Positions 51,984 through 63,899 of a stretch of 64,000 bases of DNA are shown piece after piece. Origin of the DNA: Ignavibacteriales bacterium (lineage in GTDB: Bacteria; Bacteroidota; Ignavibacteria; UBA10030; UBA6906); the NCBI GenBank assembly GCA_037441705.1, contig JBBIRR010000014.1:13229-77228 (forward strand). Reading direction: 5' to 3'. How positions within the stretch are numbered: the stretch's first letter is position 1; every line of letters starts with the position of its first letter. Below the pieces are notes generated by a model. That model searched no databases. It saw nothing but the letters and a program-made list of their open reading frames with translations, and was not told the origin of the DNA. Position numbers and translations under genes: made by a program.

Positions 51984-54900
51984 CTACTGCCTTTCACGTG
52001 GGGCGTCTACCTCATCTGCCCGATGCGACGGATGATCCACCTCGTCGCCGCGCTTGGGCATACGCGGCGCGGGTTCGGTACCCGTCCCTTTCTTCGCAGC
52101 AAGCGCCTTCTGGATCAGTGCTGCGCGCTGGCGCTGGACTTCATCGTTCAGTTTCTTGTCTTCATCGAGGTCAAAATACCTCCGGCCGTCCACCCACGTT
52201 TGCTCGCACCTGGTATAGGTGGAGAAGGGATGGCCGCTCCAGATAACGAAGTCGGCATCCTTGCCCGGCTCCAGCGACCCGACGCGGTGGTCAATCATCA
52301 ACTGCTTCGCGGGATTCAGGGTGACGAACTTGAGCGCCTCTTCTTCGGCAACGCCGCCGTACTTCACGGCCTTCGCCGCTTCCCAGTTCATGCGGCGTGC
52401 AAGCTCGTCGCTATCCGAATTGAACGACACGAGAACGCCCTGCTCGTGCATGAGCGCTCCGTTGTAGGGGATCGCGTCGTAGACTTCCAGCTTGTACGCC
52501 CACCAGTCGCTGAACGACGAAGCGCCCGCGCCGTGTTTTGCCATCACGTCAGCGACTTTGTACCCCTCAAGGATATGCTGAAACACGCGAATCCTGAAAC
52601 CGAAATCCTCCGCTACGCGCATCAGCATCAGGATTTCGCTTTGCACGTAGGAGTGACAGTGGATGAAGCGCTTGCCGCGAAGGATTTCGAGAATCGCATC
52701 CAGCTCAAGATCCCGGCGCGGCGGGATGCCGGATTTCTCCTTCTCCCACTTCTGCCAGGCCTTCTCGTAGTCCAGCGCTGCTTTGAACTCATCCCGAATA
52801 ATCTGCTCGACGCCCATCCGTGTCTGCGGATAGCGCGTGGTAAAGCGATCGCCCCAGTTGGATTGCTTCACGTTTTCGCCGAGCGCGAACTTGATGGTGG
52901 GAGGACAGCCCTCGAACTTCATCTCGTCGGGCAGACTTCCCCATCGCAGCTTGATCATCTGCGCCTGGCCGCCGATGGGATTGGCCGAGCCGTGCAGGAT
53001 GTGCGCCGCTGTCAGTCCGCCGGCCAGCGCGCGATAGATGTCAATGTCATCGCTGTCAATGATGTCACCGATCCGCACTTCCGCCGAAACCGCCTGCCGC
53101 GATTCGTTCACGCCGCCTGATGCCGCCATATGAGAATGGGCGTCAATGAGTCCAGGCGTTACGTGCTTCCCGCGTGCATCAATCACCAGCGCGTCCGGCG
53201 GTGCGGAGAGCTTGGCACCGACGCGAGAAATTTTTCCCTGTTGAATTAGAAGGTCGGCGTTCTCCAATTTCCCCTGCGGGCCGCACGTCCAGATCGTCGC
53301 GCCTTGCACAAGCACGGCCGCGGGCTGAACGGGTTTGGCCGCGAAGCCAAACTCACCGAGAGGATAGACGGGTGGGAACGACGCCATCCTCACCTCTTTC
53401 GGCTTCAGCGTATCCGGCTCCGGCACATACGGACCGATACGACGCGCGTTCCACGAGAATGCTTTCCCGTCCGACCACTCGCCGCTGCCCGATAGTGCAT
53501 CCTTCCGCAACGCGGCGGACATACGCACAATGCCCGCGTAGCCGAGCGAATCTCCGGGGAACGAGAACGACAGGCGAAGCTGCGCAAGCACGACGTTCGT
53601 GAGCTTCGCCTCTTTCGTTTTCTTGATCGAACCCCTGAGCGACTCAGGCTCACCCTTGAGTGTAAGAAGAATCGAATCGGCCGATGCTTCGCGTGCGATA
53701 CTCAACAGCCACGTTCCGCGAGGATCAATCTCAGGAAGAGGCTTGATCTCATACCGCGTACCGTCAATCCAGCTTTCGCGGATGATCGTCTTCTCGTCGA
53801 ACACATCGCCACTCGTGACGATGAAGTTTGCCACCTTCCCAACTTCGAGGGAACCGAGCTGTCGTTCAACACCAAACATTCTGGAAGGAGAAATTGTTAG
53901 AGCAGCGAGCGCTGCGTCCCGGGAGAGGCCGCGCTGCACAGCCGTGCGTACCGCGGCGAGAAATGTCCCCGCATCCTTCAGCATGGCACCGGTCAGCGCG
54001 AATGAGACGCGGGCTTCATGCAGACGCTTCGGGTTCTCGGGCGCTTCGTCCCAATGACGCAGTTCCTCCAATGTGTATTGCAGCGCCTCTTCCGGCGATG
54101 AGACATTCGGTGCTTCAGGAAAGTTGATGGGAAGAATGATGGGGCGACGCGTGCCTTGCACGGCCTCAAGCCGGCGGTATTCTCTTCCGCTGCCGCGGAC
54201 GATAAGGTTGAGGCCGAACTCTTCCGCGATCTTGTCCGCGCGCAGCAGGTCAAGCTCGCTGTTCGTCTCAATCACGACGGGAATTTTCTTCGTCAATACG
54301 TCGGCGAGTGCAGCAAGGGCCTCATTCGTCTCGGGGCGTGGGAGTGAGGGATTTTTCGCGTACGCGTCGTGTGCTCGGGCATACCACTCCGCGTCGTACA
54401 TCGCTTGACGGATGAAGGCGATGATACCCATAAGCGAGCCGGGATATTCTTCCGAACCCCACTCGCCGGCAAGCTGCATGTGTTGGGCGACATTCGAACG
54501 CACCAGCATTTCATTCGGTTTCCCATCGCCGAGATTCACCACGGCACTCATGCCCTTGATGATGCCGCGCTGAGGAACGACAAGGGCGGCGGTGAAGCCC
54601 TGACTCCGAAGTTTCTCCGCCGCCTTTGCATCGGGCGTGAGAAGCTTCGCTGTGTTGTTCTGAGGCTGGGCCATTCTGTTCCAGTACTCGACACCGCGCG
54701 AAGGCTCGGTCTCCGGACGCTGCCGCTGCGGCTCACCCTCAGCCTGCGCCTGAGGCTTGGGCGCTTTGGGTACGCCGTAATCCGAATACGCATCAATGAA
54801 CCCGGGGTAGATCCATTGCCCCCTCATGTCCCATACACGAGCATCTGCGGGGATGGGAATGCCGGCGCCGACTGCAACAATGACGCCGTTCCGGATGACA

Positions 54901-55079
54901 AGTGTTCCGTTTTCGATCACTCTGCCCGGCACAGGAATAATGCGGGCGTTCGTGAAGGCATGCACCCGCGGCGTGTTCTTGCGGATGCCTTCGGCTGGTG
55001 TGGTCTGCGCTGCACCCGCGCGCACCAGCAGCACCAGGAGTGTTGAGATGGTCATCCACCGGGGGACTGAGGCAAACAT
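51984..55079 (-). CDS. Exported double-domain amidohydrolase
   Basis: Domain 1 PGFIDAYS (degenerate); domain 2 PGLIDAHSH, KFALGEN, HCHSY, FQHILEG, NSD. Confidence 0.88.
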   Translation of the reverse strand: MFASVPRWMTISTLLVLLVRAGAAQTTPAEGIRKNTPRVHAFTNARIIPVPGRVIENGTLVIRNGVIVAVGAGIPIPADARVWDMRGQWIYPGFIDAYSDYGVPKAPKPQAQAEGEPQRQRPETEPSRGVEYWNRMAQPQNNTAKLLTPDAKAAEKLRSQGFTAALVVPQRGIIKGMSAVVNLGDGKPNEMLVRSNVAQHMQLAGEWGSEEYPGSLMGIIAFIRQAMYDAEWYARAHDAYAKNPSLPRPETNEALAALADVLTKKIPVVIETNSELDLLRADKIAEEFGLNLIVRGSGREYRRLEAVQGTRRPIILPINFPEAPNVSSPEEALQYTLEELRHWDEAPENPKRLHEARVSFALTGAMLKDAGTFLAAVRTAVQRGLSRDAALAALTISPSRMFGVERQLGSLEVGKVANFIVTSGDVFDEKTIIRESWIDGTRYEIKPLPEIDPRGTWLLSIAREASADSILLTLKGEPESLRGSIKKTKEAKLTNVVLAQLRLSFSFPGDSLGYAGIVRMSAALRKDALSGSGEWSDGKAFSWNARRIGPYVPEPDTLKPKEVRMASFPPVYPLGEFGFAAKPVQPAAVLVQGATIWTCGPQGKLENADLLIQQGKISRVGAKLSAPPDALVIDARGKHVTPGLIDAHSHMAASGGVNESRQAVSAEVRIGDIIDSDDIDIYRALAGGLTAAHILHGSANPIGGQAQMIKLRWGSLPDEMKFEGCPPTIKFALGENVKQSNWGDRFTTRYPQTRMGVEQIIRDEFKAALDYEKAWQKWEKEKSGIPPRRDLELDAILEILRGKRFIHCHSYVQSEILMLMRVAEDFGFRIRVFQHILEGYKVADVMAKHGAGASSFSDWWAYKLEVYDAIPYNGALMHEQGVLVSFNSDSDELARRMNWEAAKAVKYGGVAEEEALKFVTLNPAKQLMIDHRVGSLEPGKDADFVIWSGHPFSTYTRCEQTWVDGRRYFDLDEDKKLNDEVQRQRAALIQKALAAKKGTGTEPAPRMPKRGDEVDHPSHRADEVDAPRERQ

Positions 55080-55121
55080 CACGGCAATCTTCCTTGAGTG
55101 TGAATGAAATGGCAAGTAGTC

Positions 55122-55664
55122 TCAGCGAGTGAATAATCTCTTGTAGACGGTAAAATCGGATGGTGAGAAGACGACGAACCGAACCTCCTGCAGCGAGGGG
55201 TGTTCCTCTACAAATGTCTTCACCGTCTCAAACGCGATGTTCGACGCGCGCTCGATCGGAAATCCATACGCTCCGGTACTAATGGATGGGAACGCGATGG
55301 TTTTGAGATCGTGCTCGACCGCGAGTCTCAGCGAGTTGCGATAGGCGCCGGCGAGCAGTTCATCTTCGCGATGGCCGCCGCCATGCCACACGGGGCCGAC
55401 GGTGTGGATAACGTACTTCGCCTTCATCTTGCCCGCCGACGTGATCATTGCTTCTCCTGTTGGAAGGCGACCGTGCTTCGCGACGTACGCTTTGCACTCT
55501 TCGAGAATCTGCGGGCCACCCGCACGATGGATCGCGCCGTCAACGCCGCCGCCGCCCATCAAACCGGAGTTGGCAGCATTGACGATCGCATCGACATCCT
55601 GCTGCGTGATGTCGCCCTGAACAAGCGTGAGGGTCGTGGTGTGGACGACGATGTGCATACGCAT
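55122..55664 (-). CDS. ymdB: Macro-domain O-acetyl-ADP-ribose deacetylase (YmdB-like)
   Basis: GDIT, AIVNAAN..LMGGGGVDGAIH, IHTVGPVW, FPSISTGAYGFP. Confidence 0.92.
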   Translation of the reverse strand: MRMHIVVHTTTLTLVQGDITQQDVDAIVNAANSGLMGGGGVDGAIHRAGGPQILEECKAYVAKHGRLPTGEAMITSAGKMKAKYVIHTVGPVWHGGGHREDELLAGAYRNSLRLAVEHDLKTIAFPSISTGAYGFPIERASNIAFETVKTFVEEHPSLQEVRFVVFSPSDFTVYKRLFTR

Positions 55665-55678
55665 GACACCGGGAAGGC

Positions 55679-57511
55679 TCACCAGGATTCCCGCGCAAGC
55701 TTCCAATGCTCGGGCGAACGCCACAGCGACGAGAGGAACAACTCGCGCATGAATGTGAATTCGCGGGGAAGCCTGTCATACAGTTTCGAGAAAAGTTCTT
55801 CGTGGGAAAGAAGCTCTTTCTTCCACTCTTCACTCTCCACCGACATGACCTTGTCGAATGTCTCGCGGGGCATCTTCAACCCATCCCACATGATGTCTTC
55901 ATAACGCGGCATCCAGCCCAACGGACTTTCGATGGCGTAGCCGCGGCCGTGAACGCGGTCGATGATCCACTTCAGCACGCGCATGTTTTCGCCGAAGCCG
56001 GGCCAGATGAAATTCCCGTTCTCGTCCTTGCGGAACCAGTTCACGGCGAAGATGCGCGGCGGATTCGGCGTGTCGCGTCCAAACTGCAGCCAGTGGTTGA
56101 AGTAGTCGGCGATGTGATAGCCTGCGAAGGGCAGCATCGCCATCGGGTCGCGCCGCACATTGCCGATCTGACCTGCCGCAGCGGCGGTAGTTTCCGAGCC
56201 CATCGTTGCAGCCAGATAGACGCCGAAGTTCCAGTTGACCGCCTGATACACCAGCGGCACAACGGAGCTTCTCCTTCCCCCAAAAACAAACGCGCTGATC
56301 GGTACGCCGTTCGGGTCTTCCCACCGCGGATCGATCGCGGGGTTCTGATGCGCGGGCACCGTGAAGCGAGCATTGGGATGAGCAGCAGGCGTTCCGCTCG
56401 CCGGGGTCCAGTCTCTCCCGCGCCAATCAACCAGATGCGGCGGCGTGTCGGTCAGTCCTTCCCACCACACATCACCGTCCGGTGTTTGCGCGACGTTGGT
56501 GAAGATAGTGTTCGCTCGGATGCATTCGATGGCGTTGGGATTGGATTTCGGCGATGTGCCCGGCGCCACCCCGAAGTATCCTGCTTCGGGATTGATCGCG
56601 TAGAGCCGTCCGTCGTCGCCTCGCTTGATCCATGCAATGTCATCACCGACGGTGGTGACCTTGTAGCCTTCGAATCCTTTCGGTGGAATGAGCATCGCGA
56701 AATTTGTTTTGCCGCATGCGCTGGGAAACGCCGCTGCGATGTACGTCTTCTCCTTCGATGGTGTTTCGACGCCGAGAATCAGCATGTGTTCGGCGAGCCA
56801 GCCCTCGTCGCGCGCCATCACCGAGGCGATGCGCAGCGCGAAGCATTTCTTGCCGAGCAATGCGTTGCCGCCATAGCCGCTGCCAAACGACCAGATGGAG
56901 CGCTCTTCGGGAAAATGCACAATGTACTTGTGCTCCTTGTTGCAGGGCCATGGCGCGTCCTTCTGTCCGGGCCCGAGCGGCATCCCCACCGAGTGAAGGC
57001 ACGGAACAAATTCTCCGTCACCCAGAACGTCCAACACTTTCTTGCCCATGCGCGTCATAATCTTCATACTCACCACCACATACGGTGAGTCGGTGATTTC
57101 AACACCGATGTGGGAAATGGGCGAGCCTAACGGTCCCATGCTGAACGGAACCACATACATCGTCCTCCCGCGCATGCACCCATCGAATAGACGCAGCAAT
57201 ATCTCCTTCATCTCGCGCGGGTCCATCCAGTTGTTGGTGGGGCCTGCGTCTTGCTTGCGGCGACTGCAAATGAACGTGCGATCTTCCACGCGCGCAACAT
57301 CGTCGGGGTCGGAGAGCGCAAGGTAGCTGTTGGGTCGCTTGTCGGGATTGAGCCGCTTGAATGTTCCCGATTTCACAAGTAAGTCACACAGCCTGTCGTA
57401 TTCCTCCTCCGAGCCGTCGCACCAATACACACGATCGGGCTTGCAGAGTTTTCGCATCTCCTCGACCCATGCCTGCAACTTCTGACTCTTAATGTGTGTG
57501 GGATTCAGCAT
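55679..57511 (-). CDS. pckG: Phosphoenolpyruvate carboxykinase (GTP)
   Basis: [53 protein letters not shown]. Confidence 0.97.
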
Positions 57512-57735: not shown

Positions 57736-57764
57736 TTGCGCTCGGCGGGAAAAGAACATATATT
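57736..57764 (+). promoter_or_regulatory. Sigma70-type promoter of the protease-Lgt operon
   Basis: TTGCGC-N17-TATATT(GA). Confidence 0.6.
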
Positions 57765-57812
57765 GAGCCGCAGCCACGTTCCTATCCTTTCATCAGCATC
57801 ATGGAGGATGCT

Positions 57813-60206
57813 ATGTTTCCCCTGCATAGATTCGCTCCAACCCTTCTCCTGCTCTTCGTTCCCTGCCTCATCATCGCCCAGCAGGAATCGCCGTACAAAC
57901 TCAAGCCCGTGTACACGCCCCCGCTGCAGCGACCTGCATTGGAGGTTTCCCGTGCGGCTCTGCCGGCGAAGGCAACAGGCGCTCTCCCGGCCTTCGACGG
58001 CGATGCATTCCATCTCAACCTCGGCGCCGAGGCGCGCCGGGCAACACAGGAGGAGGCACGCAGTGTACTGAATGCCTACCTGAGTGCCATCGGATATAAA
58101 GGATCGCCCGATGACATCTCGTTTGTTCGTACCGTGCGCAGCGGCGAGACGAACAAGGAGACCCTCGAGAAGAGTATTAAAGAAGGGCAAGAGCAAACGC
58201 GGCGGAAAGTCGTGGGCAAGTTTGGACGAACGAACAAAGCCATCGACGAAGGCTTGCGCGAATCCGCCGATGAACTGCGCAGGCAGGCGGCAATGACGGA
58301 CGAGATTTTCGTGTTCGAGCAACGCTTCAAGGGAACGCCCATCGAGAACGCCGGCGCACGCGCTGTCGCACACGGCACCGCAGGGCTCTCCTCGCTCTCC
58401 GGGCGTATCTTCTCGACCATCAACATCACCAACACGCAGAAGCTCAACGCCGACGGCGCCATGCGTGCCGCGCGAGAGTATGTCAGCAAATCCGCCAAGC
58501 TCGATAACATCGGCAATGCCCGGCTTGTGTTGTTGCCGTACGGAGAGGGCTTCCGCTACGCGTGGAGAATGGACGCATCGGTGGAAGACGGTCCGTACGA
58601 AATTTGGATTGATGCCGAGAGCGGAAACGTGCTGCAGCTTGAGCCGCTGTTTTCGTACGACGCCGCGCGTGGGTTGGTCTTCAATCCGAATCCGAACGTC
58701 GGTACGGTAGAGAAAACGTTCGAAGTCGACCCGCCTTCGGGCAATACCTATCGCCTGCGTCTGAATAACGTGTTAGATGTGAACAACAACGGCGCTGATG
58801 GTGTGAGCAACGGCGATCTGACCATCTCTTCGGTCAACGTCACCGAGGCAAACTTCAACGTCAATCCCATCAACGGCACTGTGGTGGCGCGAACGAATCA
58901 GGCGAACTACAACTCCCGCTTTCAGGAGGTGAATGTGTACGCGTGGGTGTTCACCACGCGCAAGACGTATCTCGATCTCGGCAGTCAGAACTTTCCCTTC
59001 ATCACCGCAACAGTCAACCACAATAACCCGTGCGGGTTCGGCATCAACAACGCATGCGCAAGCGGCACAAACAGTCTCACCTTCGGCATCGGCGGCGCAA
59101 CGACAGGCACCAGCACGGCGTGCAGTCAGCTCTTTAATTCCGCCATTGATGCCACAGTCGTGCTGCACGAGTTCGGTCATCTGCTGAACCGCATACAGGT
59201 GAATGCGGCGGGCGGCACGATGACGCAGTCCATTAACGAAGGAATGGCCGACTTCTGGGCATGCACATTCAACAACACTGATACATTCGGGGCGTTCTGG
59301 AACAACAACTGTCCTGCACCGGTACAGACGAGCTTCGTGCCGCGCCAGGCCGAGCCACAGGATGTTTTTCCCGAGCACATCATCAACTTCGGCGACGGAT
59401 TCCCGCACAGCGACGGACAGATTATCTGCTGGGCGCTCTGGAACTCGCGCACCGAGTTGAACGCCATTGATGCGCTTGGAACGTTCAGCATCAATCTCAA
59501 TCTCGTGCGGGCACTGGCGAGTTCGGGGGTGGGCGTGGTGGCAGGAAGTACACACCAGCGCGTGCACGACGCGTACGTGAACCTGCTGCAGAATCTTGTC
59601 TCGCGCTACAGCACGAGTCGCTATGCGCACAAGATTCTCACGGGCTTTGCCCGTGCGGGCATCTTCCTGAGCGATCGCGAAGCCATTGTGGACATCAACG
59701 ACGACTACCTGAATCGCAACGACGCCAACGGACCGACGTTCACGATCTGGACGGGGCGCGACTACACGTTCAACGCCAACGGCAGTGCCAACACGGGCAA
59801 TCAGCCGTTCAACACGCGCTTTACGGTCGAAGTTGCTAACGACGAGGCGTTCACCGTCAACCTCGTCTCCAGCGGCTCGCTCGGAGGAGTTGTCGCCGCC
59901 GACGGCGGACGCGCAACGTGGACACTCCCGCAGGCCAACTGGAATACACTCAAAGCACAGAACCAGCTCTTCTACCGCGTACGAACAACCGACAACGCCG
60001 GCGGCAATGCGCGTACTTCCGGCAACCCCGGCAACGGGTTCCTGACGAACGTCCCCGCCGCGAAAGCGTTCATCAACGAGAGTGGTGAGTGTGAATGCGC
60101 CTGCTCGGCATCCGCACAAACCTCCTCCCAAGGCGTTGCGTTGGTGACGTTGATTCCGCTGGTCGGTGCAATGCTCTGGCGTCGCGCCCTGAAACGCGCC
60201 GCCTGA
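57813..60206 (+). CDS. Secreted M4/M36-type zinc metalloprotease with Cys-rich C-terminal membrane sorting signal
   Basis: GGAGG SD; signal IIA-Q; FTP/PepSY-like propeptide; VLHEFGH...NEGMADFWA; PHSDGQI; tail GECECACS, hydrophobic helix, WRRALKR. Confidence 0.88.
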   Translation: MFPLHRFAPTLLLLFVPCLIIAQQESPYKLKPVYTPPLQRPALEVSRAALPAKATGALPAFDGDAFHLNLGAEARRATQEEARSVLNAYLSAIGYKGSPDDISFVRTVRSGETNKETLEKSIKEGQEQTRRKVVGKFGRTNKAIDEGLRESADELRRQAAMTDEIFVFEQRFKGTPIENAGARAVAHGTAGLSSLSGRIFSTINITNTQKLNADGAMRAAREYVSKSAKLDNIGNARLVLLPYGEGFRYAWRMDASVEDGPYEIWIDAESGNVLQLEPLFSYDAARGLVFNPNPNVGTVEKTFEVDPPSGNTYRLRLNNVLDVNNNGADGVSNGDLTISSVNVTEANFNVNPINGTVVARTNQANYNSRFQEVNVYAWVFTTRKTYLDLGSQNFPFITATVNHNNPCGFGINNACASGTNSLTFGIGGATTGTSTACSQLFNSAIDATVVLHEFGHLLNRIQVNAAGGTMTQSINEGMADFWACTFNNTDTFGAFWNNNCPAPVQTSFVPRQAEPQDVFPEHIINFGDGFPHSDGQIICWALWNSRTELNAIDALGTFSINLNLVRALASSGVGVVAGSTHQRVHDAYVNLLQNLVSRYSTSRYAHKILTGFARAGIFLSDREAIVDINDDYLNRNDANGPTFTIWTGRDYTFNANGSANTGNQPFNTRFTVEVANDEAFTVNLVSSGSLGGVVAADGGRATWTLPQANWNTLKAQNQLFYRVRTTDNAGGNARTSGNPGNGFLTNVPAAKAFINESGECECACSASAQTSSQGVALVTLIPLVGAMLWRRALKRAA

Positions 60207-60210
60207 TTCG

Positions 60211-61071
60211 ATGCGTCCGCGCATTGTCGAAACGCTCAACGCGTGGTCCGGTACCGAATTGTTCGGCTGGCTCGTGCCGGACCCCGCTTTCGTGTACGCG
60301 CTTGCGATGGCCGTTGTCGGACTGGTGTTCGTTCGAAGGGTGGGGAAGGACGGTCTTGACCCGGTGCACGCATTGGGCGCAGCAATCTGGGCCATCATCG
60401 GCGGATTGATCGGCGCGCGGGTGTTCTTTCTCATCCAGCACAACGACCTCCTGCTGGCCCGACCGTCTATCCTCTTCGATCTGAACGGCGGGACGGTGTC
60501 ATGGGGGGCGTATCTCGGCGGCTCACTCGCGTTCATTCTCTACCTTCATCGCTCACACCAACCCTCGCTGCGTTATCTTGATGTGCTGGCATCATGTCTG
60601 GGCCTCGGGCCTTTCATTGCGCGGTGGGCGTGCTTCCTCAACGGAGATGACTACGGCACGCTGAGCAACGTCGCATGGGCCGTTTCGTTCCCCCACGGAA
60701 GCTACCCCTTTGCAGCACAGGTGCAAGCGGGGCTGCTCGACCCCGTCGCCGAGCTTTCTCTCCCCATTCATCCCGTTCAACTCTACCTCTCGCTCAAAGG
60801 GCTGCTCCTCTTTCTGGTCTGCACGATGCTCTGGAAGCGAAAACTTCCCGACGGATTCCTCTTCGCAATCTACTGGCTCCTGTTTGCCGCTGTTCGATTT
60901 GCGTTGGAGTTTTTCCGCGGAGATAGTACACGCGGGTTTGTGGGGGGACTTTCCGTCGGGCAGGGTATGGCGCTGGCCGTTTTTCTTGCAGCGGGGGTGA
61001 TGATGGCGTTCATCGCATGGCGGAGAACGTCACCGCTCGTCAAAGAAAAGATTGCCGGAGGAATTGAGTGA
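60211..61071 (+). CDS. Prolipoprotein diacylglyceryl transferase-like protein (divergent Lgt paralogue)
   Basis: GGLIGARVFF, ARWACFLNGDDYG, WAVSFP, IHPVQLY, RFALEFFRGD; about 7 TM helices. Confidence 0.88.
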   Translation: MRPRIVETLNAWSGTELFGWLVPDPAFVYALAMAVVGLVFVRRVGKDGLDPVHALGAAIWAIIGGLIGARVFFLIQHNDLLLARPSILFDLNGGTVSWGAYLGGSLAFILYLHRSHQPSLRYLDVLASCLGLGPFIARWACFLNGDDYGTLSNVAWAVSFPHGSYPFAAQVQAGLLDPVAELSLPIHPVQLYLSLKGLLLFLVCTMLWKRKLPDGFLFAIYWLLFAAVRFALEFFRGDSTRGFVGGLSVGQGMALAVFLAAGVMMAFIAWRRTSPLVKEKIAGGIE

Positions 61072-61093: not shown

Positions 61094-61122
61094 TGCGCTC
61101 CACAGCTTGATCGTGGAGCGCA
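61094..61122. terminator. Hairpin between convergent genes
   Basis: TGCGCTCCAC/GTGGAGCGCA perfect 10-bp stem. Confidence 0.6.
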
Positions 61123-61161: not shown

Positions 61162-63249
61162 TCACTGCACGGACTTTCCGTTCTTCAGATACTCCTTCAA
61201 CCAGTCGAACACCGTTTCATGCCAGAACTTGCTGTTGGCGGGCTTCAGAATCCCGTGTGCCTCATCGGAGAACCAGATGAACTTCGACGGCACGCCCTGT
61301 CGCTGCAGCGCAGTGAAGAGCTGCATCGCCTCGGAGATCGGCACGCGATAGTCACGCTCGCCGTGGAGAATCAGCGTCGGCGTGCGGAAATTTTTGGCGT
61401 AGATGTGCGGTGAGTGCTTCACAAACTCTTCCCGATTCTCCCACGGGATGCCGTGTTCCCACTCATCGAACCACACCTCTTCCGTCGTGCCGTACATGCT
61501 TTCGAAGTTGTACACGCCCGCATGTGTGACGATCGTGTTGAAGCGGTTGCCGGTATGGCCGAGAAACCAATTCATCATGTACCCGCCGTAGGAGGCACCG
61601 GCAGCGGCCTTGCGAGTGCTATCCACGTACGGCAAGCTGCATACGAAGTCAAGTCCCTTCATCAAGTCTACAAACACCTTCCCGCCCCAATCGCGACTGA
61701 TCTCGTTGACAAACTTCTGTCCGAACCCCGTGCTGCCACGCGGATTGGGCGCCATCACCACATACCCCTGTGCAGCCCACACTGCAGGATTCCAGCGGTA
61801 GTGCCATGCGTCAAGCCACGCGCCCTGCGGACCGCCGTGCACCATATACACAAGCGGATACTTCTTGCCTTCTTCCATAATCGGCGGCTTGTGAATCCAC
61901 GCCTGGACTTTCGTTCCGCCCTCGCCATCGAACCACACGCTTTCAGGTTCGGGAATCGTCAGCGCTGCGAACAGCTCATCGTTCACATGCGTGATCTGCA
62001 TGAAGCCGCTTCCGTCAAGATTGACCGTCGCAAGCTCGACCGGACGCGTGGCACGCTCATGCATGAACAACAGACGTTTGCGATCGGGCATGACCATGAT
62101 CGAACGATTGACGCCGCGATCGAACACCTTCTTCACATCGTTGCCCGTGACGGAAACGACAAAGATCGGCTCGCGGCCCTGTTCCTCGGACTCGAAGAAG
62201 ATGCGCTTGCTGTCCGGAAACCACACGGGCGCGCCGACGCTCGCGTCGAAGTTTTCCGTCAGGCTGCGCGTTCGGCGCGTCGTCCGATCGTACAGCATCA
62301 GCTCCCATCGGTCCGCCTCGAAGCCGGGCGTGCGCTGGGCGCGGTAGAAGAGATATCTGCCGTCCGGTGAGTAGCGCGGATAGCCGTCAGCGGCCGGATT
62401 GGTAGTAAGCTGTCGTGGTTCGCCACCGCTGATGGACACCGTGTAAATGTCATGATTGGTGTTCCAGGCTTCTTCGTGCACGGGCAGCGGCGTGGCAGTG
62501 TATGCCAGCTCTTTGGAGTCCGGCGAAAACGCGAAGTCCGTGCCCGCTGAAAAGGTAGATGACGTCGGCACCGCATCACGATCGCCGGGAGTGAGATCGC
62601 GTGGGACGGTCGGAACATCAATGCCTGCAAACGGCTGCACAAAGATGTGTTTGCGCTTGCCTTCGACCCAACCGTCCCAATGCCGATACAACAGCCGCGT
62701 GATGACGCGTGCTTTCACCGTGCTGTTCTTCATCTCCTCCAGCCGATTGCTGTTCAATGAATCGGCTTGCTCGAAGGGTAGATGGGAGAACTCGGGAAAC
62801 ACTTCGGACACAAAAGCGATCCATCGTCCGTCCGGCGACCAAACATGCTGCGCAGCTCCGGTTGCAAGGCGTGTAAATTGCTTCGCCTCGCCCCCATCGG
62901 GACTCACGATCCAGATTTGGGATGTGCCCGAGCGTGTGGACTCAAAAGCAATCCACTTGCCGTCAGGCGACCACATCGCCCGGCGATCTGCGGCAGGATC
63001 GTTGGTGAGTTGTCGCGGCGTGCCGCCGGCTATGGGCATCAGCCAGATGTCCGTCAGGTTCTTGTTCTCCTTCAGGTTCGGAGTTGTCACGGTGTAGGCT
63101 ACCCACTTTCCGTCGGGCGAGATCGCCGGCTCGGACACGCGTTGGATTTTGAAGAGATCGTCAAGCTCGAGCGGGCGCTTGTCCTGCGATTTGCTTTGCG
63201 TGAGCAAGACGCTCACAACGATGAGTAGTACAGCATTCTTCAAGGGCAT
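61162..63249 (-). CDS. S9 family peptidase (dipeptidyl/acylaminoacyl peptidase) with beta-propeller
   Basis: SPDGK repeats, VHGGPQ, GASYGG nucleophile, HGERDYRV, DEAHG. Confidence 0.94.
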   Translation of the reverse strand: MPLKNAVLLIVVSVLLTQSKSQDKRPLELDDLFKIQRVSEPAISPDGKWVAYTVTTPNLKENKNLTDIWLMPIAGGTPRQLTNDPAADRRAMWSPDGKWIAFESTRSGTSQIWIVSPDGGEAKQFTRLATGAAQHVWSPDGRWIAFVSEVFPEFSHLPFEQADSLNSNRLEEMKNSTVKARVITRLLYRHWDGWVEGKRKHIFVQPFAGIDVPTVPRDLTPGDRDAVPTSSTFSAGTDFAFSPDSKELAYTATPLPVHEEAWNTNHDIYTVSISGGEPRQLTTNPAADGYPRYSPDGRYLFYRAQRTPGFEADRWELMLYDRTTRRTRSLTENFDASVGAPVWFPDSKRIFFESEEQGREPIFVVSVTGNDVKKVFDRGVNRSIMVMPDRKRLLFMHERATRPVELATVNLDGSGFMQITHVNDELFAALTIPEPESVWFDGEGGTKVQAWIHKPPIMEEGKKYPLVYMVHGGPQGAWLDAWHYRWNPAVWAAQGYVVMAPNPRGSTGFGQKFVNEISRDWGGKVFVDLMKGLDFVCSLPYVDSTRKAAAGASYGGYMMNWFLGHTGNRFNTIVTHAGVYNFESMYGTTEEVWFDEWEHGIPWENREEFVKHSPHIYAKNFRTPTLILHGERDYRVPISEAMQLFTALQRQGVPSKFIWFSDEAHGILKPANSKFWHETVFDWLKEYLKNGKSVQ

Positions 63250-63332
63250 ACGAATTCTCCCAATAGTTGTTGTTGTACCAGACAGATGCATAGCACGCGG
63301 AGAGATTCTGGCAGACTACTCGTTCCCGGCAC

Positions 63333-63899
63333 TCACCGACTCCGCGGTGGCGTCTTATCCTCTTTCAGAAAGTTCTTCCACATCATAGACTCCACCGGTT
63401 TGTCCGTTCGCTCGGTGTACTTTGCGGATGGTTTAGTTCGATAGTTCGTCAGCACCTCGCCGTCCACCTCAAAGTAGATGAGCTGGCCGATGGGCATGCC
63501 GCGATAGATACGCACGGGTTGCTTGACCGAAATCTCCAACGTCCACGTGTTGCAAAAGCCAATGTCTCCTTTCCCCGCCGTTGCATGAATATCAATCCCC
63601 AATCGTCCGATGCTGCTCTTGCCTTCGAGGAACGGAACATGCGCATGCGTTTCCGTGTACTCCTCCGTCACGCCGAGATAAAGACGGTGAGGCAGAAGTA
63701 TCAAACCGTCTTCAGGAATTTCGAGATACTCAACCTCGTTGTGCAGTTTCGCATCCAGAATATCGCTCTTGTATGTTGCAAGCCATTTGCCGAGATGCAC
63801 GTCGTAGGAGTTCGAGCCGAGGTATTTCCGGTCAAACGGCGAGATGACGATGGTGCCTTTCTCCATCTCTTCGAGGATGCGTTTGTCGCTGAGGATCAT
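63333..63899 (-). CDS. dcd: dCTP deaminase
   Basis: MILSDK, NSYDVHL, EGKSSIGRLG, AGKGDIGF, TLEI. Confidence 0.93.
   Translation of the reverse strand: MILSDKRILEEMEKGTIVISPFDRKYLGSNSYDVHLGKWLATYKSDILDAKLHNEVEYLEIPEDGLILLPHRLYLGVTEEYTETHAHVPFLEGKSSIGRLGIDIHATAGKGDIGFCNTWTLEISVKQPVRIYRGMPIGQLIYFEVDGEVLTNYRTKPSAKYTERTDKPVESMMWKNFLKEDKTPPRSR

Follow-up and report, generated by a model that had tools for sequence, protein, structure and literature searches.

A candidate C-terminal lipidation cassette pairing a Cys-tailed metalloprotease with its own Lgt paralogue in an Ignavibacteriales genome

A two-gene unit on the forward strand

Lgt transfers diacylglyceryl from phosphatidylglycerol to the lipobox cysteine that follows an N-terminal signal helix. 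Here we describe a pair of genes from an Ignavibacteriales bacterium (GenBank assembly GCA_037441705.1, contig JBBIRR010000014.1), located in a stretch of 64,000 nucleotides (nt) that we call the window and to which positions refer unless another contig or locus is named. The first gene encodes an exported metalloprotease (the cargo) whose C-terminus carries a cysteine motif followed by a membrane helix and a basic cluster, and the second encodes an extra Lgt copy (the paralogue). As far as sequence comparison can tell, the best explanation of the unit is a self-contained, horizontally mobile two-gene sorting cassette. In addition, the comparisons and structure models make it fairly probable that the paralogue is a dedicated lipid transferase that acts on an invariant cysteine of the cargo tail.

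The cargo gene (57813..60206, + strand), delimited from its open reading frame (ORF) and a homologue alignment, encodes a 797-residue exported M4/M36-like gluzincin metalloprotease with a C-terminal Cys-helix-basic tail. It starts at the ATG at 57813 and stops at 60204-60206 on the + strand, and an alternative in-frame ATG at 57801 would add four residues (MEDA). Only 4 nt separate its stop from the start of gene 2 (60211..61071, + strand), which encodes the 286-residue Lgt paralogue and which ORF, Pfam, alignment and trees place in a clade of tail-linked Lgt proteins. The pair is isolated, since the neighbours on both sides (55679-57511 and 61162-63291) lie on the - strand. An initial annotation, made from the sequence of the window, had already described a self-contained two-gene unit, and the 4-nt gap, the opposite-strand flanks and a hairpin at 61094-61122 are all as it reported.

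The cargo protease and its C-terminal tail

The cargo begins with an N-terminal signal peptide of the signal-peptidase-I type, MFPLHRFAPTLLLLFVPCLIIA followed by QQ and without a lipobox (57813..57878, + strand; judged by eye and from homologue N-termini). Its zinc site, at 59166..59240 (+ strand), consists of HEFGH (H452, E453, H456) and a third ligand, E476. All four residues are invariant in the 19 aligned homologues (alignment A3), which gives the combination of HEXXH and a downstream Glu that characterizes M4/M36 gluzincins. Family searches by sequence gave little: Pfam and NCBIfam scans returned no protease family above cut-off and a sub-threshold PepSY match, the rhombosortase-dependent M36 model NF038111 scored a weak 13.4 bits, and a sequence search of PDB gave no match at E <= 1. 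An AlphaFold2 model built from the 19-sequence alignment has a mean predicted local distance difference test score (pLDDT) of 72.5. Its top Foldseek match is an Aspergillus M36 propeptide (4k90_B, E 6.3e-4), and further matches at E 1e-3 to 5e-2 include the vibriolysin propeptide, aureolysin (M4) and M36 catalytic chains. While the motif is observed directly, membership of the cargo in an M4/M36-like gluzincin family with a PepSY-type propeptide is suggested by the model. The features behind the earlier description of gene 1 as a Sec-exported gluzincin with a Cys-transmembrane-basic tail are present: signal peptide, HEFGH and E476, and tail.

The C-terminal end of the cargo reads GECECACSASAQTSSQGVALVTLIPLVGAMLWRRALKRAA and has a tripartite architecture, with a Cys motif that contains an invariant cysteine, a 15-residue helix and an RRALKR end. 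The Cys motif GECECAC (G758-C764) occupies 60084..60104 on the + strand (alignments A2, 24 rows, and A3). Within it, the invariant cysteine is C762, the middle Cys of C-E-C-A-C (60096-60098, + strand; alignment A2, 24 rows). The tail membrane helix, VALVTLIPLVGAMLW, comprises the 15 residues V775-W789 (60135..60179, + strand) according to sequence and alignment, and the structure model has a helix at 775-796. It is followed by the basic end RRALKRAA (60180..60203, + strand), read from the sequence and predicted to be cytoplasmic. All 24 protease-family tails that were aligned have G758, C762 and P782, and C764 is almost as constant.

Within the source genome this tail appears to be unique. A hidden Markov model of the tail finds the window protein alone (E 5e-28), the next best match being at 0.18, which points to a system of one enzyme and one substrate. 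A lenient tail pattern returned 13 ORFs, among which the window protein is the sole convincing one by eye. Against the MYXO-CTERM model TIGR03901, the window tail scores 14.2 bits (E 0.042), under the cut-off of 20. Ten other tails of the family were scanned with a single pass (L044, 25.4 bits), and some of the others weakly match tails of myxosortase-dependent families. NCBIfam holds no model specific to the window tail or to the Lgt-paralogue clade.

Two further features of the tail are recorded here as side observations. The invariant P782 is encoded at 60156-60158 and falls midway along the tail helix. An N-x-S/T-G sequon (NESG in the window, 60075-60086) directly precedes the Cys motif in 24/24 protease-family tails; in the trimmed rows the count is 23/24, and the sequon of L113 is visible in a longer stretch.

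An extra Lgt with conserved catalytic residues

Gene 2 is an Lgt homologue, as first annotated: the Pfam LGT family (PF01790) matches residues 27-266 with 140.7 bits against a cut-off of 24.9. It is also a second copy. The source genome, which is 100% complete in 92 contigs, has another lgt at C1:19537-20346 that scores higher (184.9 vs 140.4 bits) and that clusters, by similarity, with the one Lgt that relatives have. The separate housekeeping gene that a dedicated paralogue would call for is therefore present.

In an alignment with E. coli Lgt (5azb), R138, R229, E233 and R236 of the paralogue correspond to R143, R239, E243 and R246, and all four are invariant in 23/23 clade rows (alignment A1). 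R138 (60622..60624, + strand) is the counterpart of the catalytic R143, and R229 (60895..60897, + strand) that of R239. According to the available part of the E. coli Lgt structure paper, R143 is critical for catalysis, and R239 is conserved more strongly than any other residue (PMC4728403).

Linkage of the Lgt clade to tailed genes

A protein search with the paralogue returned 300 proteins at E <= 1e-20; the 120 listed share 47-97% identity with it at 266 bits or more, whereas ordinary Lgt genes of relatives score at most 108 bits. Strong matches to the protease were found in seven of 41 related genomes, and precisely these seven have a paralogue of at least 348 bits. In 6/6 genus mates that carry the paralogue (59-78% identity), it lies next to the protease gene, whose tail is conserved, and the cassette as a whole is present in 7/12 genus genomes.

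To look beyond the genus, genomes and metagenome contigs were scanned, which gave 67 and 80 loci, respectively. A neighbour was sought as a same-strand ORF whose end lies no more than 400 nt before the Lgt gene or 120 nt inside it, and it was called tailed when a cysteine was followed by a hydrophobic 13-mer and then a basic cluster. Inspection by eye changed fifteen neighbour labels: L051 and L127 became tailed, five tails were reassigned to other cargo, and eight were set to none, either for an ORF of only 28-31 residues or for a membrane protein with the Cys inside a helix. For the trees, high-scoring segment pairs shorter than 180 residues and seven identical rows were left out, which kept 131 distinct Lgt rows. 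FastTree on these 131 rows yields a 46-row paralogue clade with support 90, and IQ-TREE on 71 rows puts the same 46 on one side of a branch with an approximate likelihood ratio support (SH-aLRT) of 91.

A Cys-helix-basic tail gene lies directly upstream in 42/42 clade rows with upstream sequence (37 with protease-family and five with other cargo), rows that are related sequences and not 42 independent events. The remaining four clade rows are too short upstream to classify, and the 36 residues visible for one of them (L119) show a helix and RRR. On the other side of the tree, a tailed neighbour was found in 0/71 rows with upstream sequence, and the neighbours there are housekeeping genes. Clade hosts are metagenome-assembled genomes (MAGs) labelled Ignavibacteria/Chlorobi, Calditrichota, Acidobacteriota and Bacteroidota. 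In 19 genome loci, cargo and Lgt alone are conserved (19/19), with no CPBP gene in the neighbourhood. The comparison of homologue neighbourhoods proposed with the initial annotation therefore came out in favour of linkage, 42/42 against 0/71, and some of the cargo is unrelated to the protease.

The N-terminus of the cargo can be set aside as the conserved target of the paralogue, because an N-terminal lipobox cysteine occurs in only 2/14 resolved N-termini of the cargo family (L051 and L054) and is missing from the other 12 and from the window protein. On these grounds we rejected an N-terminal lipobox as the real target.

A few members of the wider family are worth recording on their own. In 8/19 genome loci (L038:4865-5383, L043:5108-5671 and six further loci), the gene after the Lgt paralogue encodes a small PF00300 protein of the histidine-phosphatase superfamily whose signal resembles that of a lipoprotein; the window lacks this gene. 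Neither a second paralogue-level Lgt in G043 (L186) nor a weak third in G041 (L185) has a same-strand tailed neighbour of at least 200 residues. An apparently broken member of the paralogue family is found in a MAG labelled Gemmatimonadales (L097:597-1622), and 2.4 kb upstream of it lies a 342-residue protein without an assigned family that ends in GPGCGS, a helix and RRPRGKRRR.

Unrelated cargo and a sister clade with N-terminal signals

The five rows with other cargo form a subclade with support 100. In three of them (L107, L114 and L115) the cargo is a repeat protein of 430-480 residues without a Pfam match, ending for example in GCGGCG, a helix and WRRR, and in two (L127 and L130) it is a BNR protein (PF13088) with NCCCNGG or GGGGGC ahead of the helix. 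A further locus, L136, carries a Peptidase_S8 cargo (136.8 bits) that ends in EDCCVGCG, a helix and WWRRR and lies 470 nt upstream of the Lgt gene; its Lgt is partial, falls outside the tree and is nearest to L128 by eye. By BLAST, these other cargo proteins show no likeness to the protease beyond the tail. Even a distant Lgt with 37% identity (L138) follows a protein without an assigned family that ends in GGGCG, a helix and RRR. In L042, tailed protease paralogues flank the Lgt gene in the order cargo-Lgt-cargo, the downstream copy being at L042:4831-7395. As the cargo changes while tail type and position stay constant, the linkage follows the tail and not the protease. We also noted, as a detail of L136, a short ORF between the S8 cargo and the Lgt gene (L136:1355-1855) that repeats the Lgt N-terminal MRPKII and looks like a duplicated fragment.

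These cargo exchanges bear on the simplest account of the adjacency, namely that a protease gene and an lgt copy were inherited side by side and have no functional tie to the tail. That 37 of the 42 tail-linked rows share one cargo family is what such inherited synteny would produce. However, a repeat protein, BNR proteins, an S8 subtilase and the L138 protein all occupy the cargo position with tail type and position unchanged, and the pair is spread over MAGs of several phyla, yet is found in only 7/12 genomes of one genus. Together with a co-fold of enzyme and tail that passes its controls (see below), this leads us to disfavour shared ancestry of the gene order as the sole explanation and to regard it as very improbable.

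The sister group of the paralogue clade comprises seven rows, none with a tailed neighbour. In a five-row subclade of it (L014, from genome G008, with L056, L131, L132 and L133), the gene directly downstream encodes, in 5/5 cases, a protein of about 420 residues with a signal peptide that closes on a lipobox-like cysteine and has x-C after it. Examples are LHGCTCPQPQ, LLTGCNCPQPQ, AISCECPQPN, ISGCTCPQPQ and GAGCDC; one partner has a TIG domain, and the L132 partner shows HEAGHAFNLLHSD. These sequences suggest that the broader lineage consists of Lgt enzymes that are each dedicated to a substrate, with the Cys-bearing signal encoded beside the enzyme in both arrangements.

Co-fold of the paralogue with the tail

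The paralogue and the last 59 residues of the cargo were co-folded from an enzyme alignment of 23 rows and a tail alignment of 24 rows. The score was 0.78 (runs 0.83, 0.72 and 0.78) against 0.23 for the best control, the controls being unrelated natural proteins and not membrane helices. At least 57% of contacts are common to the runs, and the partner pLDDT is at least 60. In a benchmark, the same mark was reached by 58/80 solved complexes and 2/110 mismatched pairs, a comparison that is rough since our own alignments were used. Tail residues 35-59 (residues 773-797 of the protein) contact enzyme residues 24-41 in the first transmembrane helix (TM1), 51-63 in the second (TM2) and 91-92, with P782 against residues 30-37. 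Contact pairs are parallel for TM1 and antiparallel for TM2, in agreement with both topologies. In E. coli Lgt, the TM1-TM2 cleft is named the "front cleft" in the available part of the structure paper (PMC4728403). The sole solved relative by sequence is 5azb/5azc, whose entry listing has no peptide chain, so that the score is unlikely to reflect a known complex reproduced by the model. The co-fold, which the initial annotation had suggested as a check, supports binding of the tail by the paralogue.

The search for a cognate protease

In known C-terminal sorting systems, the sorting enzyme is a peptidase. The initial annotation had pointed to Rce1-like sortases, and here the search came back negative: with CPBP and myxosortase (Mrt) models in the source genome and five other cassette genomes, no dedicated sortase was found. 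None of the four CPBP homologues of the source genome reaches the cut-off of any Mrt model. For Mrt_core (NF040914, cut-off 100 bits), the best score in the source genome is 32.5, and 0/5 of the other cassette genomes, whose completeness is unknown, have a pass (best 36.5). Three stand-alone CPBP genes of the source genome occur in 12/12 genus genomes whether or not the cassette is there, and we rejected them as the cognate protease for that reason. Likewise rejected were the two LspA homologues of the source genome, both copies of which are found in 10/12 genus genomes, cassette-negative ones included. The source genome also encodes four rhomboid homologues. As a separate observation, its fourth CPBP homologue is fused to a PP2C/SpoIIE-like phosphatase (C12:72478-74919) and adjoins the weaker of the LspA homologues (C12:71962-72387).

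These searches bear on the possibility that the tail is an ordinary MYXO-CTERM signal, which the housekeeping Lgt or some other enzyme would lipidate and a myxosortase would cut, with the paralogue serving another purpose such as the N-terminal signal of the cargo. The weak TIGR03901 match of the window tail (14.2 bits) and the passing tail of L044 (25.4 bits) speak for it, as does the standing of the housekeeping Lgt as the leading candidate in Myxococcus, given that MrtX processed TraA in E. coli (available part of PMC11980579). On the other hand, none of the 6 cassette genomes has an Mrt_core pass (the source genome being complete and the other five of unknown completeness), and the stand-alone CPBP genes are distributed irrespective of the cassette. 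Moreover, the source genome has one tailed protein, against the dozens in myxobacteria mentioned in the same source (PMC11980579), and the scarcity of N-terminal lipobox cysteines (2/14 resolved N-termini) argues against an N-terminal role of the paralogue. We therefore consider an ordinary MYXO-CTERM signal improbable, and prefer to regard the paralogue as the enzyme that serves the tail.

Proposed mechanism

If the paralogue does serve the tail, the cargo would be exported via Sec by its ordinary signal peptide, and the C-terminal helix would hold it in the inner membrane, such that the basic end faces the cytoplasm and the Cys motif sits immediately beyond the outer face. The Lgt paralogue would dock the tail helix on its own TM1/TM2 face and move a lipid onto the thiol of C762, perhaps onto C764 also. 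By homology, the lipid would be diacylglyceryl from phosphatidylglycerol, although the loss of E202 makes this donor less certain. The cargo would thus gain a C-terminal lipid anchor, and its helix may then be removed by a protease. The proposal made with the initial annotation, that the paralogue may lipidate the C-terminal Cys, is in this way supported by the linkage, the clade, the catalytic Arg and the co-fold. We infer the transfer itself, as well as the donor lipid, the modified cysteine or cysteines and any later helix removal.

Several observations weigh against lipid transfer by the paralogue. Its score against TIGR00544 is 95.6 bits, under the cut-off of 118.9 (the ordinary Lgt of the source genome, at 113.2 bits, is also just under it). 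In the 5azb alignment it has W98 at the position of H103 and no counterpart of E202, and the available part of PMC4728403 ties H103 (in the HGGL motif) and E202 to Lgt activity or to the glycerol pocket. The spacer between the tail Cys and the helix is about 13 residues, and more than 25 in L053 and L106, whereas a lipobox Cys abuts its helix. In the co-fold, the cysteines lie outside the confident contacts, the interface starting at tail residue 35, and with controls that were not membrane helices generic helix packing is possible. A better-scoring second Lgt is present in 4/5 of the other cassette genomes, while G044, of unknown completeness, shows one Lgt. We identified no cognate protease, and a protein that is held by its helix, without removal of that helix, does not obviously need a lipid. 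The by-eye correction of neighbour labels and the shared ancestry of the tree rows, described above, belong on this side as well. We had also thought of Cys at the N146 position together with the loss of H103 as marks of the paralogue, and dropped them: the ordinary Lgt of the source genome shows both, with Tyr at the H103 position and Cys at N146, and keeps Glu at the E202 position.

Some of these points would fit a paralogue that binds the tail helix without lipidating it, as a receptor, a retention factor, a maturation partner, or a maker or remodeller of lipid for another tail-processing enzyme. The confident co-fold contacts are limited to the helix and the basic end and exclude the cysteines, and neither E202 nor H103 of E. 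coli Lgt is kept. However, the catalytic Arg and the counterparts of E243 and R246 are invariant (23/23) across several phyla, which would be unexpected of a mere binder. The invariant cysteine in 24/24 tails needs a reason, and the sister clade pairs with proteins that carry a canonical lipobox cysteine. A role limited to binding thus seems rather unlikely to us, and lipid transfer to the tail cysteine remains the reading that we prefer.

Relation to known systems

The paralogue resembles the Lgt of the Lgt-LspA-Lnt pathway in belonging to the same family (PF01790) and in keeping the counterparts of R143, R239, E243 and R246, and its target would likewise be a Cys on the outer side of a signal helix that is embedded in the membrane and points its basic end into the cytoplasm. 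It differs in being an extra copy beside an ordinary lgt, under the TIGR00544 cut-off, next to a single substrate and without an E202 counterpart. Its signal, unlike that of the classical pathway, is C-terminal, with the helix reversed, no lipobox and a Cys-helix spacer of some 13 residues.

A close likeness on the substrate side is the MYXO-CTERM/myxosortase system (MrtX, Myxococcota), which has the same tripartite tail of a Cys motif, often with two close cysteines, a helix and an Arg-rich end, and whose model TIGR03901 is passed by one tail of the cassette family (L044). Here, in contrast, the neighbouring enzyme is a lipid transferase homologue and not a protease, the window tail stays under the TIGR03901 cut-off, no CPBP of the myxosortase class exceeds its cut-off in 6/6 cassette genomes, and the source genome has one tailed protein instead of dozens. 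According to the available part of a 2025 paper, the working MYXO-CTERM model requires an "Lgt-like acyl-transferase" that is stated to remain unidentified (PMC11980579). The same part has MYXO-CTERM, JDVT-CTERM, Synerg-CTERM and CGP-CTERM proteins thought to be lipidated before CPBP cleavage, with Lgt merely a candidate for that step (PMC11980579).

In gene order, the cassette is like JDVT-CTERM/MrtJ, which the available parts of two papers describe as a sporadically occurring gene pair in which a single sorting enzyme neighbours a single Cys-tailed target (10.1101/2023.06.07.544157; PMC11980579). The enzyme there is a CPBP glutamic intramembrane protease, whereas here it is an Lgt homologue with no CPBP nearby. 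Archaeosortase A/PGF-CTERM and rhombosortase/GlyGly-CTERM also use C-terminal helix signals, and the processed protein stays attached to lipid (available part of 10.1101/2023.06.07.544157). Those enzymes, however, work on the peptide backbone as peptidases or perhaps transpeptidases, their signals have no invariant Cys, and no Lgt homologue takes part.

The in-silico paper on Cys tails (10.1101/2023.06.07.544157) has, in its available text, zero occurrences of "Lgt" or "diacylglycer". Full-text searches, made outside subscription journals and supplements, turned up no account of an Lgt paralogue that specifically serves a C-terminal signal. The initial annotation had likewise known of no characterized Lgt of this kind, which agrees with these searches and with the available part of PMC11980579. 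Judged on gene content, the unit is a C-terminal sorting cassette whose cognate enzyme would be a lipid-transferase homologue. We see about even chances for a broader claim, in which the clade would be the first identified enzyme class that lipidates the Cys of Cys-helix-Arg tails, an Lgt reading its helix in reverse beside a single substrate, while its sister clade serves N-terminal lipobox-C-x-C signals, such that one lineage would have switched from N- to C-terminal signals.

The paralogue is thus a candidate for the long-sought lipid-adding step on Cys-type C-terminal sorting signals. If this is true, the known sorting enzymes, at present peptidases without exception, would be joined by a lipid transferase, and MYXO-CTERM sorting, whose lipidation step has yet to be explained, would have a direct precedent for Lgt-type chemistry. 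It would also explain widespread misannotated "prolipoprotein diacylglyceryl transferase" genes and offer a portable C-terminal lipid-anchoring tag. The pair is small enough to be testable, with a 286-residue Lgt paralogue as the enzyme and a tail of about 40 residues as the substrate.

Regulatory signals and flanking genes

The initial annotation had placed a promoter at 57736-57764. The promoter-like TTGCGC-17 nt-TATATT read from the sequence at 57736..57764 (+ strand) is weak and not above chance, with boxes that match the consensus at 3/6 (TTGCGC) and 5/6 (TATATT) positions when counted by hand. A sigma-70 scan reported no + strand site upstream of gene 1 and, over the entire region, a single site, which lies on the - strand (1.4 expected); the sigma-70 consensus may not suit this lineage, in which other promoter types are possible, and this negative scan is therefore uninformative.

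Downstream of gene 2, between the convergent genes, sequence and folding identify a perfect 10-bp hairpin at 61094..61122 that lacks a T-run and to which no strand is assigned. The 69-nt stretch that contains it folds with z = -2.66, a value equalled by 1/200 shuffles. The - strand flanks on either side (51984-57511 and 61162-63899), identified by eye only, appear to encode an amidohydrolase, a macro-domain protein and a GTP-type PEP carboxykinase-like protein, together with S9 prolyl-oligopeptidase-like peptidase and dCTP deaminase-like ORFs.

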